Assembly: GCF_988243305.1 (NCBI RefSeq)
Contig: NZ_OZ547136.1
DNA length: 64,000 bases
Reading direction: 5' to 3' (one strand)
Shown piece by piece: positions 31,417 to 36,406 of the stretch (the stretch's first letter is position 1; each line of letters starts with the position of its first letter). A model generated the notes under the pieces. It made no database searches. It saw only the letters and a program-made list of their open reading frames with translations, and had not been told where the DNA came from. A program made the position numbers and the translations under genes.

Positions 31417-31986
31417 TCAACTCCGGCTACAGCCAAAATTGCGCTCACCGGTGCAGTGAGCTTTGGTATGTTCCTTCGCCAGATAGTCAGCACGTTCCAG
31501 CACCTGCTGAAAGCCAGTGTCATCATCGCGTTCCAGCCACACCGCCGGCCAGGCCGGAAAATGCACCAGCGTGGCATGGCACCCGACATCCACTCCCAGG
31601 GCACTGCACCACGCCTGTTTAATCATCCCGGCCAGTGATCCCGGAGCACGGTAATCACCGGCACGACACCAGGTATCCCGGTTAACCAGCAGCATCAGGT
31701 GATAGTGTTTTTTACCTTTGCACTCCCCAAACTCCCGGGCCCAGACGTAATGCAGGGTGGTGGGATGCACGCGTTTACCTTCCCGATGCTTACGTTTCTG
31801 GTAAGCGTCGATTCGGGCTTTCAGGGCATTGATGAAGCGGGATATCACAGCTGCGTCCGTTGCTGCCGGTACATCCGGGAAACGCAGGTCAACCCGCAAT
31901 GCCGTCAGGCGGGGATGAACATTCAGTGCGTGCCGCACCGTCTCACGAATACGTTGCTGCCAGAAGGGGTTGTATTTGTAGGTCAT
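31417..31986 (-). CDS. YfjJ/YagK-like protein (inovirus Gp2-type replication-protein family)
   Basis: MTYKYNPFWQQRIRETVRHALNVHPRLTALRVDLRFPD...; GGAGA RBS before this ATG; track ORF starts at an upstream GTG. Confidence 0.55.
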   Translation of the reverse strand: MTYKYNPFWQQRIRETVRHALNVHPRLTALRVDLRFPDVPAATDAAVISRFINALKARIDAYQKRKHREGKRVHPTTLHYVWAREFGECKGKKHYHLMLLVNRDTWCRAGDYRAPGSLAGMIKQAWCSALGVDVGCHATLVHFPAWPAVWLERDDDTGFQQVLERADYLAKEHTKAHCTGERNFGCSRS

Positions 31987-32184
31987 GGTTAAATCTCCGT
32001 ATGGTTCATACGGAATAGCCACGTCGTAAAAAATGCGCAGAGTCCCTGAAGTGACCTCCGGCAGGACACTGTCTCAGGCACTCTGTGATACCCCAACTAT
32101 CGTCTCCGGACTGACGGTTGAATTTTCAGCGTTGTTTTTTTAATGTAAAAAACCGGTTACGGGTAAGGCTGTGAGGAGGGAGTT

Positions 32185-32382
32185 ATGGTGATACGCAAAA
32201 AGAAGTGCAGGGACTGTGGAAACGCGATTACTCATAATACATGTTGCCCGTATTGTGGTTCTGTCGACCCCTTCGGCTATTACCGGAATACAGACCGTAT
32301 CGTTACCATACTGCTGGCACTGATTATTGTGGTCCTGCTGACTACTGTCAGCGTCAGTGTGTATATACTGTGTAGCTGGTGA
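32185..32382 (+). CDS. Small zinc-ribbon membrane protein (65 aa)
   Basis: Strong AGGAGG RBS; CxxC-N11-CxxC followed by one hydrophobic helix. Confidence 0.4.
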   Translation: MVIRKKKCRDCGNAITHNTCCPYCGSVDPFGYYRNTDRIVTILLALIIVVLLTTVSVSVYILCSW

Positions 32383-33704
32383 GATAACGGTTCATGTATC
32401 CCCTGAGCTGACAGTGTACCGGGTATATTAAGCGTAACCGACAGGTTCTCCTTCATACCATATTAAATTTTTCCAGGTATTGCCGCTGCCTTATTTCGTC
32501 CCATACAGGAAAACTCGTCTGGGTTTCTGACAAATACGCGAAACTCACAGCCCCTCAATATCAACCACACGCTGTAAGCCGGTAATACCTGAAAATCAGC
32601 CCATTACCGCCCACGCCTCCGGCACCATTCCCTTTTGATTTCGAATTCTTTGTTGTCGCTATACCGCTTAACGTTCCCGGTATTATCCTGGTTCCCGACA
32701 ACAGGAACATATTCAGCTTTTAATAACCTGAGAAGAGCCAATAAGAATCACAAAGCGGATAACACCTGGTGCGATGCAGTTGTGATTACCGAACGCTCAG
32801 ATGACATATTTCCAGACTGAAGCGGGAACACGATCGTAAAGCTTGTTCATTGTCAGTTCTGCCAGCCAGTGATCAACCACAGAGTTGAAGGCTTCCAGTT
32901 CCGCAGAGGTAAGTTTATAACGCGTGTGGGAAATCACTTTTTCCAGCGTCTCCCGGGATGAACAACGACGGAACTGCTTTGGTTTTAACTTCCATTAGCC
33001 TCTCATCACTTTATGCTGCAATTAACGTGATACTGTCAGCATACCGCCAGACTGGCATTCTGGTACCCACCCCAAACTCATTACTCCCGAGCCACCACTT
33101 AACCGGTCTCTCAGACTGTCACTCACCAGGTCGGATATGTTTACCGCTCAGACGGATGCTTAATGCACTCTGTTCACGTACATTGCAGATACGTTTTATA
33201 TACGCGGGTTATACGCCAGCTATCAGGGATAGCGCAGTCTGTTGCTACTGCGTTCTCATCATGCCCACTGATCACACTCACCGTGTTTATTTCACATATA
33301 TGAACTCATGTATTTGATCTCATGTGTTTGATCTCTCTTATATATTTATAATACCAATCAGACAGTCTTATCCCATCGGTGATACCTGTCGCCTGCCCAC
33401 CGGACACGGTCTGCCCCATCGTAACCGCCCCGTAAATAACTCTGCAATTATCAGAACGCCAGTTTTCCCCTCTTCCTCACGAAAATCATCCCTTCTTTAT
33501 CGCGCGCGCGTGCGGAAGCATCGTTTCGTAACAACCACCCGGCATACCGGTACGGCTCAACCACCGTAACCTCCCCGTTTATCTCCTGGCGGTCACATTC
33601 CCGATTATTTTTTACGTTTCTCCCCGGTTGTTATGCCGGTGAAGGTGGTGCGTTGTTTTCATGACCACACCGGCTGGTTTAACAACATCCGGAGGAACAT
33701 TCTC

Positions 33705-33911: not shown

Positions 33912-33991
33912 TTCTTAACCGTTCATCTGCAACAGACGCAGTCTCCGGCCTGCCGGCGGCGTTCTGCTGCCTGTTATCCCCCGTGAGGAAT

Positions 33992-34600
33992 ATGAAAATG
34001 AAACCACAGTATCAGACCCGTTACGAGCTGCTCCACGAAAGCTACCAGAAATGGCTGACCGGCTTCACCCGGCACGCCGTATCCTGGGGCGTGTGTCATC
34101 CGAATATCTACTACTTCCATAATCTGACGCCCGGGTGGGTGTCATTCAATGGTGAAAAACCGGAGATTGCCATCGTACCCCAGAGTCTGCACCGGCTGAT
34201 TTATGGTCCGGACAAACGGACCACGCCGCCCCTGGATGATGATCTGATAGTGAATTTATGCACCAGTGAACATCTGCTGGTTCATCATCCGATGCTGGAA
34301 GGCATTCTCCTGTCTGAATGTGAACGTCTGAGGCAGCGTTCGCTGGCAAATAAACTGATCATCCTCTTCCGTCAGTTTGGTGGCACGGAGTTGCGCCTCA
34401 AACTGGTCTGGCTTTGCTGGCTTGATTTAATGACCGGAAACTGCCTTGACGACTGGACGGAGAATCTGAAACGGAAATCAGAAAAAGAGCTGGAGGAATG
34501 GATCATCAACCGTCAGAAGCAGAGCGCAGCACTGACGGATCTGATGGATCAGTACGTGCTCCTGGCATACCGCACAACGGTTGACGATAAGCGCACCTGA
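33992..34600 (+). CDS. Hypothetical protein (202 aa)
   Basis: GAGGAA RBS before ATG (MKMKPQYQTRYELLHESYQKWL); no family recognised. Confidence 0.4.
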   Translation: MKMKPQYQTRYELLHESYQKWLTGFTRHAVSWGVCHPNIYYFHNLTPGWVSFNGEKPEIAIVPQSLHRLIYGPDKRTTPPLDDDLIVNLCTSEHLLVHHPMLEGILLSECERLRQRSLANKLIILFRQFGGTELRLKLVWLCWLDLMTGNCLDDWTENLKRKSEKELEEWIINRQKQSAALTDLMDQYVLLAYRTTVDDKRT

Positions 34601-34921
34601 TGCCAGTTGTTTCAGGGAAGCTGGTATCCGGGCAGGGTGCCAGGGCTGACTGAACGGCCTGTCTGCCTGCCGTTTCGCTCTCCGTGCGTTCTGTCACACG
34701 CTGCACCTGAACGCCGGACTGCGGGCACGCAGACAGGAAAGTCGCAGGCTGGAACTTCTGACCGGCGGGTATCAGTTATATGCCTGTTGATTCATCACCA
34801 CCACGCAGCTCCTGAGCTTTAGTTCATCACCGATATTCATACATCTGAATATCGGTGATGAAATCCCCATAATAATCAATCATCTAAGTCTGAAGCATAA
34901 TGGAGAAAAACTGCTCACCGG

Positions 34922-36406
34922 TTACTTCGCTCTCAGCTTATTGTAGTGATAACCCGAGGTAAAAATACCAGAGACATCAGACAACTTTAAACTGGCTATC
35001 TGGGGAAGCAGAACATACATGGTTTTTCCTTCCGGCACGACAGAAAGCCTGAACTGAGATTCAAGAATGTTCAGCAATGCGTTCAGTTTTTTCCTGTTTC
35101 TGAACCGACCCGGGCCACACTGGAGAATATAATTTTTCCTGACACGGGGTGGGCATTCTCCGCGGCACTCCTCAATGAGCCAGTCGAACAGCTCCTCGGC
35201 GTCCTTCTGCTGCAGTTCAGATTCATCAGGTAACGCAAATAATTTTTTATATTCATCTGTGTACCACGAACTTATTACGACAGCAGACGTCATGATATCG
35301 GCAGAGATTTTCCCTTCACCATAGCTGAAATACTGAAATAACGCTGCAATTCTTGCAATGTTTTCTGTTTTTTTTGAAACATGTCCCCGAAACGGGCTTA
35401 AGGGTCCGGAAGGGGATAAATCCTGCTCCAGAACATTATAGTGCTCAATAAATATTTTTTGCGCTTCAGGCGAAAAATGCAGACAATACCGTTCATCCTC
35501 ACTGGATTTTTCAATACTGCCTCTGGCCAGTTCCATTAATCGTTCATGAAATGCCGTTAATGATCCTCCCGGAATCACAGCTCCGTTAATAAAGCGTTTC
35601 CCCTGCGTGGTTGCAGGTTTACTGATAAGACAACGGGCAAGAAAACCACTGTCCCTGGCAACAGAACCTTTTCGCTCCATATATCGGTCAAAAAGACCGG
35701 GTTGCACCATGAGGGATAACGTCATTCTGGTATTTTCAATCATCTGTTCGGGTTCATTCTTTCTGTCCACAGACAATACAGAGCCATCCCACATTTTGTT
35801 AATAAAAGGCAACTCAGACAGGGTATATCCATCAAATATAATACCGGCTTCATCTGACATAATACCCACTGAACGCCATTTACCACAAAGCTGATTCTTA
35901 ATTGCCGCAGTCGTGGCATCATTAAAAATGAATTTATACCTCACAGGTTCTTCCGCACTGTTTTTCTGAAGTACTTCCAGTTGTCTGAGGGTTTCTGACT
36001 CATCCGCGCCTTTGCGGAGTTCTTTATTCAGTTTTGACAACAATGCTTTTTTCTGAGCCTTTAAAAGCTCTTCCTTGTTTTTCCAGACAGCCAGTTCACT
36101 TTTGTATCTGGAATATAACTGCATCTCCTGCTGGTACAGGGGCTTCATTAATAATTTGTCCACTGCGGTTTTTCGTTCTCCGGACTCGGCAAGCGTCAGG
36201 AAAAAAAGAGAGACCGGCCCCCGCAGTGTATTCAGTCTGCAGACATCAATCAGATTCTGGCAGACAAGTGAAACAGCGCCCAGGGCAGACGCTGCCACAA
36301 GCCCAAGGGGAGCCTGCGTAATTTGCTGAGCTTCAATAACGGCATCACGAATGAGTGGAGGCAGCGAACTCAGGGGAAACTCATCACAAGGCTGACCGAA
36401 TGACAT
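34922..36406 (-). CDS. Hypothetical protein (495 aa), possibly YfjI/DUF3987-like, with central coiled-coil
   Basis: GTGAGG RBS before ATG (MSFGQPCDEF); coiled-coil segment ELAVWKNKEELLKAQKKALLSKLNKELRKG. Confidence 0.45.
   Translation of the reverse strand: MSFGQPCDEFPLSSLPPLIRDAVIEAQQITQAPLGLVAASALGAVSLVCQNLIDVCRLNTLRGPVSLFFLTLAESGERKTAVDKLLMKPLYQQEMQLYSRYKSELAVWKNKEELLKAQKKALLSKLNKELRKGADESETLRQLEVLQKNSAEEPVRYKFIFNDATTAAIKNQLCGKWRSVGIMSDEAGIIFDGYTLSELPFINKMWDGSVLSVDRKNEPEQMIENTRMTLSLMVQPGLFDRYMERKGSVARDSGFLARCLISKPATTQGKRFINGAVIPGGSLTAFHERLMELARGSIEKSSEDERYCLHFSPEAQKIFIEHYNVLEQDLSPSGPLSPFRGHVSKKTENIARIAALFQYFSYGEGKISADIMTSAVVISSWYTDEYKKLFALPDESELQQKDAEELFDWLIEECRGECPPRVRKNYILQCGPGRFRNRKKLNALLNILESQFRLSVVPEGKTMYVLLPQIASLKLSDVSGIFTSGYHYNKLRAK

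Follow-up and report, generated by a model that had tools for sequence, protein, structure and literature searches.

The 64,000-nucleotide stretch of contig NZ_OZ547136.1 analysed here (RefSeq assembly GCF_988243305.1; hereafter the window) is part of an Escherichia coli chromosome. Between positions 31417 and 36406 lies a block of four genes, which encode a YagK/YfjJ family protein, an AlpA-family protein, a conserved 200-amino acid (aa) protein and a YfjI family protein. We conclude, with a probability of about 85%, that the block is the regulatory and DNA-processing core of the cryptic genomic island CP4-44, in a copy fuller than that of strain K-12. A sequence-only reading of the same DNA had placed the four open reading frames (ORFs) correctly and had described them as a satellite-like module. 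The feature itself is already known; CP4-44 is annotated in more than 1,000 complete E. coli genomes and is covered in the pathogenicity-island literature.

The identity and synteny of the locus are established. In blastn comparisons both flanks were collinear with K-12: asnW-asnU-asnV-ldtA-cobTSU on one side and tmaR-yeeA-sbmC-dacD-sbcB on the other. The island occupies the interval between cobU and tmaR (yeeX)-yeeA, as CP4-44 does in K-12, and the block is contiguous with yeeP-isrC-flu-yeeR-yeeS-yeeT-cbeA-cbtA-yeeW. CP4-44 has been reported to lack an integrase, and its excision to go undetected (PMC3105296); likewise, the window has neither an integrase gene nor attachment site (att) repeats. 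A 6-kb query around the block had matches in 3,867 of the 5,426 complete E. coli genomes; in 1,073 genomes they covered at least 80% of the query. The best matches were 99.9% identical, and the RefSeq annotation of the best match was used for gene order. It lists insertion sequence (IS) debris with a group II intron, two zinc-ribbon genes, an "inovirus Gp2 family protein", a small hypothetical protein, an Hha/YmoA-family fragment, a helix-turn-helix (HTH) regulator, a 200-aa hypothetical protein and a "YfjI family protein". There follow a GTPase, antigen 43 (Ag43), a long YeeR-like protein, IrmA, DUF905, DUF932, an antirestriction protein, YeeS, DUF987, YeeU/CbtA and YeeW, and then tmaR, yeeA, sbmC, dacD and sbcB.

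The K-12 copy is a further-deleted, more decayed version of the island in the window. The shared parts are 97-99% identical and both copies are without an integrase. Conversely, K-12 lacks everything that corresponds to window positions 26521-37955, namely the IS3/intron debris, the zinc-ribbon genes, the whole block and the 5' end of yeeP. In blastn alignments the K-12 yeeP pseudogene restarts exactly at window position 37956. Also missing from K-12 is window segment 43597-46953, which corresponds to the K-12 yeeR/yeeS junction; K-12 carries yoeA with IS2 and IS5 instead.

Two of the block proteins have recognisable folds and motifs. The YfjJ-like protein matches Pfam YagK_YfjJ_C (PF11726, E = 1.3e-47) and, weakly, REP_ORF2-G2P (6e-5). 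Across 72 diverse homologues it contains an HUH motif, H94-Y95-H96, in which H94 and H96 are invariant, and a YxxK motif in which Y168 and K171 are invariant; it also has the HUH/Rep fold. The named matches in a viral structure library were microvirus replication initiators (E ~5e-6). A "Rep-like" assignment is thus supported at the level of fold and motifs, and nuclease activity is predicted. Among 50,697 phage records just one, a 4.5-kb fragment, has a member of the family, and among 72,556 plasmid records 64 do; the plasmid matches listed were mostly >200-kb plasmids or mislabelled chromosomes. A role as a plasmid replication initiator was considered, and is unsupported by this distribution among plasmid records.

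The sequence-only reading had called the last protein of the block a 495-aa coiled-coil protein. It is 494 aa long and is a YfjI/DUF3987 protein rather than merely a coiled-coil one. It matches DUF3987 (PF13148, 3.6e-95) and a PHROG annotated "DNA helicase" (2.4e-81), and is 52% identical to K-12 YfjI. It has a Walker A-like motif, S75-G-E-R-K79, and a Walker B motif, S184-D-E186, both invariant in the family (SGERK[ST] and SDE); the former differs from the canonical GxxxxGK[ST]. The DUF3987 domain stands alone, with no primase domain. The DUF3987 family has been classed with the superfamily 6 (SF6), MCM-related replicative helicases (PMC4889955), and a distant member, AgaPH, is a demonstrated 5'-3' helicase (PMC11724360). 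Profile and motifs make the YfjI-like protein an SF6 helicase homologue, predicted to unwind DNA.

The remaining two proteins are encoded by adjacent genes. The AlpA-like protein has a Phage_AlpA/HTH_17 domain and matches a PHROG annotated "excisionase and transcriptional regulator". Its neighbour had been described as a 202-aa unknown; the length is 200 aa, and the protein does lack a family match. Searches of Pfam, NCBIfam, PHROGs, PADLOC and PDB returned nothing for it, and its AlphaFold2 model was poor (pLDDT 60.7) and had no Foldseek match. PDB sequence and profile searches with the three larger block proteins were likewise without a match. In the loci recovered by our search, the 200-aa gene always follows the AlpA-like gene and is confined to Enterobacterales. 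All four block genes are intact. The ratio of nonsynonymous to synonymous substitution rates (dN/dS) between island copies was 0.07-0.33, and 0.14-0.23 for the 200-aa gene, indicating that the coding sequences are under purifying selection; since copies on different islands are compared, these values reflect selection in the mobile history too.

The absence of an integrase and of att sites, part of which the sequence-only reading had noted, is established for the window. With K-12 IntA and two other tyrosine recombinases as tblastn queries against all 64 kb, the best E value was 0.15, and the RefSeq annotation of a 99.9%-identical genome contains no integrase. Queries with YfjH and a 304-aa glyU-island protein found nothing in the window. 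The 3' end of tRNA-Asn occurs in the window only inside the three tRNA-Asn genes, the island ends have no 12-mer in common, and there are no meaningful or terminal repeats around 31417-36406. An intact integrase or att repeats would have marked the module as complete and independently mobile, and neither was found. Remnants of an integrase or primase had been thought possible in 32400-33650. Translated searches found none, and the only remnant there is Hha-like: the stop-interrupted minus-strand frames at ~32815-33000 had rightly been suspected to be a relic, and derive from an Hha/YmoA gene. The corresponding hha in the GI-pheV-type island of ATCC 25922 is intact and encodes 74 aa, whereas here an in-frame stop interrupts it. 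Both the integrase end of the island and its attachment sites are gone, and hence the copy in the window cannot move. The earlier description of the element as IS-truncated and decayed holds good, the decay being partial: there is IS debris on the left, together with the Hha remnant and one frameshifted zinc-ribbon gene.

We compared the island with three groups of relatives in the Enterobacterales. The first is formed by GI-pheV and the Shigella SRL PAI. In orf38-46 of the SRL PAI, zinc-ribbon, YfjJ-like, Hha, Vis/AlpA-like, unknown and YeeP-like genes stand in order (PMC6980539). In GI-pheV, "flu" (11.4 kb) and "yee" modules are recurrent and related to CP4-44 (PMC11537424). From size and content, the block is probably the left part of the 11.4-kb flu module. 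The likeness extends over the zinc-ribbon, YfjJ-like, Hha, AlpA/Vis-like, unknown, YeeP-like and Ag43 genes, and fetched copies have ~85-98% DNA identity. Unlike the island in the window, these retain a P4-type integrase beside a tRNA gene, and virulence cargo separates it from the shared genes by tens of kb. The GI-pheV-type copy has an intact hha, and its allele of the 200-aa gene is 36% identical. For the GI-pheV-type island of ATCC 25922, no integrase was seen in the 14 kb and 41 kb of upstream sequence.

The second relative is CP4-57 of K-12, with the order intA-yfjH-alpA-yfjI-yfjJ ... yfjP ... ypjF. It has the same families and overall plan as the island in the window, with protein identities of 52% for YfjI, 36% for YfjJ and 50% for the GTPase. 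Unlike in the window, alpA, yfjI and yfjJ share one direction and adjoin the integrase at ssrA. CP4-57 lacks the 200-aa, zinc-ribbon and Hha genes, and its AlpA is too divergent for detection by blastp.

The third group comprises glyU-type islands of E. coli, Klebsiella and Salmonella (for example NZ_OZ197100). These share with the window the AlpA-like gene, the 200-aa gene (~60% identity), the YagK/YfjJ gene, the zinc-ribbon gene and a non-coding block of ~65 nt. They also have the same divergent arm of GTPase, DUF932, antirestriction, RadC and CbeA/CbtA genes. Conversely, their four genes are arranged as a single co-directional operon, behind which comes variable, mostly defence cargo; they lack YfjI, Hha and Ag43, and an integrase and tRNA gene are present. 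Relative to this arrangement, the AlpA-like/200-aa pair is inverted in the window, and YfjI, Hha and Ag43 are additions. A complete example runs from tRNA-Gly through the integrase and cargo to the zinc-ribbon/YfjJ/200-aa/AlpA operon, with the integrase ~11-13 kb from the operon. The view that such a module normally sits beside a P4-type integrase is therefore right for CP4-57 and wrong for the block's own relatives, where the integrase is ~11-13 kb off or none was seen within ~55 kb upstream.

Two further observations concern these islands. The inverted pair in the window spans 33705-34600 and is reversed with respect to both the YfjJ/zinc-ribbon genes and the GTPase arm when compared with positions 21501-22397 of a glyU-type locus (L014); no inverted repeats were found around the pair in the window. 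In relatives L009-L014 the site just after the zinc-ribbon gene has cargo that varies by strain: BREX; a large cluster encoding an SNF2 helicase, AAA-ATPase, S8 peptidase and methyltransferase; ABC-3C with ars; or MFS with fimbrial genes.

The ~65-nt block lies directly upstream of the ribosome-binding site of a zinc-ribbon gene. It was found in 19 of 22 fetched loci and is missing from K-12 CP4-57 and CP4-44. It is nearly invariant even between islands whose YfjJ proteins are just ~24% identical. An exact-pattern scan of ~100,000 species-representative genomes found it in eight: six Enterobacterales isolates and two metagenome-assembled genomes, one of them labelled Bacillota. Folding z-scores were -0.5 (RNA) and -1.85 (DNA); RNAalifold detected no compensatory pairs or covariation, and there was no Rfam match. 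Candidate roles for it are operator, leader and HUH nick site.

The mechanism that we infer applies to the intact, tRNA-integrated relatives. There, the AlpA-like protein probably controls excision or the expression of island genes. The HUH protein, joined by the helicase in islands that have one, probably nicks and processes the excised circle, which would then enter rolling-circle replication or single-strand transfer. In the window, these genes for excision control and DNA processing would be stranded, there being no integrase and no ends; they are still intact. A broader proposal is that the AlpA-like, 200-aa, YagK/YfjJ HUH and zinc-ribbon proteins, with or without the DUF3987 helicase, make up the replication or mobilisation engine of a widespread class of Enterobacterales tRNA/tmRNA islands, which ferry genes for virulence and anti-phage functions and have analogues in Pseudomonas. 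The ~65-nt block would be its cis-acting site and the window would hold a stranded copy. We offer this only tentatively and consider it somewhat doubtful. In the Pseudomonas tmRNA islands, which are transduced by a jumbo phage, a core of tyrosine integrase, AlpA, inovirus-Gp2-like protein, RadC and HTH protein accompanies variable defence cargo (bioRxiv 10.1101/2024.08.29.610337). These islands belong to another genus and are likened to those of E. coli by gene content; their route is transduction. Since islands with a comparable core are transduced, we do not choose between modes of transfer for those of E. coli.

Several points weigh against a DNA-processing role for the block. YagK/YfjJ proteins, the 200-aa protein and E. 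coli YfjI are not known to have a biochemical or genetic function, and no origin or nick site was identified. The helicase cannot be an obligatory partner, since the glyU-type relatives do without YfjI. Blastp does not connect the AlpA-like protein with K-12 AlpA, the two being too distant, and there is no integrase promoter here for it to act on. Finally, intact ORFs in an immobile island could mean some other service to the host or to the island.

The last point leads to the first alternative, domestication. Here the AlpA-like and Hha-like proteins would regulate island or host genes (flu, yee), or the HUH nuclease, helicase and zinc-ribbon protein would be an anti-phage system. This would explain why ORFs stay intact in an island that cannot move, and it draws on the low dN/dS of all four and on the wide distribution of the block (~1,070 of 5,426 genomes). 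The operon of the relatives also stands directly beside defence cargo, including BREX, the SNF2-helicase/AAA-ATPase/S8-peptidase/methyltransferase cluster and ABC-3C, and CP4-57 carries AbpAB and RnlAB. However, PADLOC gave no significant match for the YfjJ-like, YfjI-like, 200-aa or zinc-ribbon proteins, its weak matches being confined to the AlpA HTH and the YeeP GTPase. The genes stay the same while the defence cargo beside them differs, as a backbone would and cargo would not, and the dN/dS values also record selection during the mobile history. We regard domestication as unlikely.

That the block is a decayed phage satellite of P4-like, PICI or PICMI-like type, minus its integrase, is less likely still, and we consider it improbable. 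The idea has some appeal: PHROGs families match both YfjI ("DNA helicase") and YfjJ, CP4-57 has a P4-type integrase beside alpA-yfjI-yfjJ, and AlpA-family and DUF3987 genes are two of the four mandatory PICMI markers. The PICMI model of SatelliteFinder requires an integrase, AlpA, a DUF3987/DUF5906 primase and fis at the integration site (PMC10803314); the window supplies the AlpA and DUF3987 components, but an integrase is lacking and the insertion site of the island is not fis. A P4-like satellite would have an adjacent integrase, of which no gene or remnant occurs in the 64 kb, as well as sid, psu, delta, epsilon and the alpha primase-helicase, all missing from annotation and PHROG scans of the island proteins. 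A PICI would have int-alpA-pri/rep followed by packaging genes in ~10-15 kb with att sites; of all this the island has just the AlpA-like gene and a helicase homologue. Annotation and PHROG scans of the whole 25-kb island found nothing like capsid, terminase or other packaging genes, Sid/Psu/Delta, Ppi/Rpp or primase. The near absence of the YfjJ family from phage records points the same way. Furthermore, the block is embedded in a unit of at least 18 kb with an adhesin, an antirestriction gene, radC and a toxin-antitoxin pair, and in its own relatives the integrase is far from it, behind cargo. The label "satellite-like" was therefore mistaken.

The extent of that unit also bears on the limits of the block. 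From the zinc-ribbon genes to cbtA, at least 18 kb are collinear with islands that other strains carry at different loci. Positions 30384-48410 are collinear with an E118 island beside the fec genes and yjhU (89-98% identity). Positions 30795-44913 are collinear with an ATCC 25922 island that carries pap, iha, sat, iuc and nan (85-98% identity), position 44913 being the end of the fetched locus and not of the similarity. The zinc-ribbon genes separate the IS debris from the block and are part of the same conserved unit. On the right, similarity to other islands continues across the AT-rich spacer, which is hence an intergenic region internal to that unit and not a boundary. The IS family that abuts the left end of the unit is IS3 in the window, ISL3 in IMT5155 and IS66 in E118 and ATCC 25922; a different family in each strain indicates repeated truncation by IS elements rather than a shared end. 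Thus, the IS debris and 1.2-kb AT-rich gap that the sequence-only reading took as bounds are real, but they do not delimit a discrete module. An independent small mobile unit between them is highly improbable, as both supposed limits are crossed by similarity to other islands, the block has no flanking terminal repeats and the abutting IS family varies by strain.

Table 1. Features of the island, in order along the window.
Feature	Position	Strand	Remarks
Left island edge	24102..30017	.	cobalamin-biosynthesis gene remnant, IS4 remnant, IS1, split IS3-family fragments, group II intron
IS1	25293-26060		768 bp, 9-bp target duplication
IS3-family fragments	~26584-30008		interrupted by group II intron
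Two tandem zinc-ribbon genes (DUF7828/Zn_ribbon_11 type)	30250..31163	-	RefSeq of near-identical genomes; Pfam labels on relatives
~65-nt near-invariant non-coding block	31165..31240	-	directly upstream of the zinc-ribbon gene's ribosome-binding site
YagK/YfjJ ("inovirus Gp2") family protein, 189 aa	31417..31986	-	ORF 31417-32022, ATG at 31986
65-aa ORF, CxxC...CxxC and hydrophobic tail	32185..32382	+	hypothetical in the annotation of all relatives
Hha/YmoA-family remnant	32797..33010	-	in-frame stop near 5' end
AlpA-family HTH protein (excisionase/regulator type), 68 aa	33705..33911	+	Pfam Phage_AlpA PF05930, 1.3e-8
Conserved 200-aa protein, no known family	33998..34600	+	ORF
Perfect 17-bp inverted repeat, 6-nt loop	34823..34862	.	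between the convergent 200-aa and YfjI genes
YfjI family/DUF3987 protein, 494 aa	34922..36406	-	SF6, MCM-related helicase family
AT-rich intergenic spacer, 38% GC	36407..37596	.	between the divergent YfjI and yeeP genes
Rest of island	37597..49700	+	yeeP GTPase, IsrC/IS102 RNA, flu/Ag43, 840-aa YeeR-like protein, IrmA, DUF905, DUF932, antirestriction protein, YeeS/RadC, DUF987, CbeA/CbtA, YeeW, DUF957 fragment, pduV-like remnant yoeF

The features of the island are collected in Table 1. At its left edge, the cobalamin-biosynthesis gene remnant is probably cbiP. The IS1 copy is missing from K-12 and from the closest genomes. The group II intron (~27258-29530; ltrA at 27915-29438, Rfam Intron_gpII at 29442-29528) sits inside an IS3-family transposase gene, whose halves are the ORFs at 26898-27323 and 29591-29986. 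Of the two zinc-ribbon genes, the distal one (~30359-30768) is frameshifted and the proximal one (30756-31163) is intact. The inverted repeat downstream of the 200-aa gene probably acts as a terminator in both directions. Scans for promoters and terminators returned about as many hits as chance would give. To the right of the spacer, positions 38612-38815 are a full-length match to the Rfam IS102 RNA (253 bits), at the position of the K-12 small RNA isrC just upstream of flu (Ag43). At gathering score, Rfam reported only this RNA and the group II intron, with nothing in 31000-37700 at E<=1. The antirestriction, RadC and DUF932 genes are such as transferred DNA tends to carry.

Gene fragments remain at both flanks: one from a cobalamin-biosynthesis gene beside cobU (24102-24300), and one of the EutP/PduV family, yoeF (~49400-49700). 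Read against the cob-pdu gene order of Salmonella, these fragments suggest that the island has taken the position of the cbi-pdu region lost by E. coli. Such a position would fit the lack of an adjoining tRNA gene and att sites. Further out, the three tRNA-Asn genes lie at 16365-20672, followed by ldtA-cobTSU. Positions 1-10484 have the appearance of the right end of the yersiniabactin high-pathogenicity island, with a salicyl/DHB-AMP ligase-like gene (3261-4838), a gene for a TonB-dependent siderophore receptor (4969-6990) and fragments of an inverse-autotransporter (yeeJ-like) gene (7776-10484). On the other side, the yeeA region differs from K-12 by a 1.28-kb insertion (50784-52059) that encodes an IS110-family transposase (NCBIfam, 1.5e-75).

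As a genome feature the block adds little; its value is as context for the CP4-44 of K-12. The block genes are a constant backbone, alongside which virulence and defence cargo is inserted. The YfjI and YfjJ/YagK families have recognisable DNA-processing folds, and the function of these backbone y-genes would explain how these very common islands are maintained or moved.

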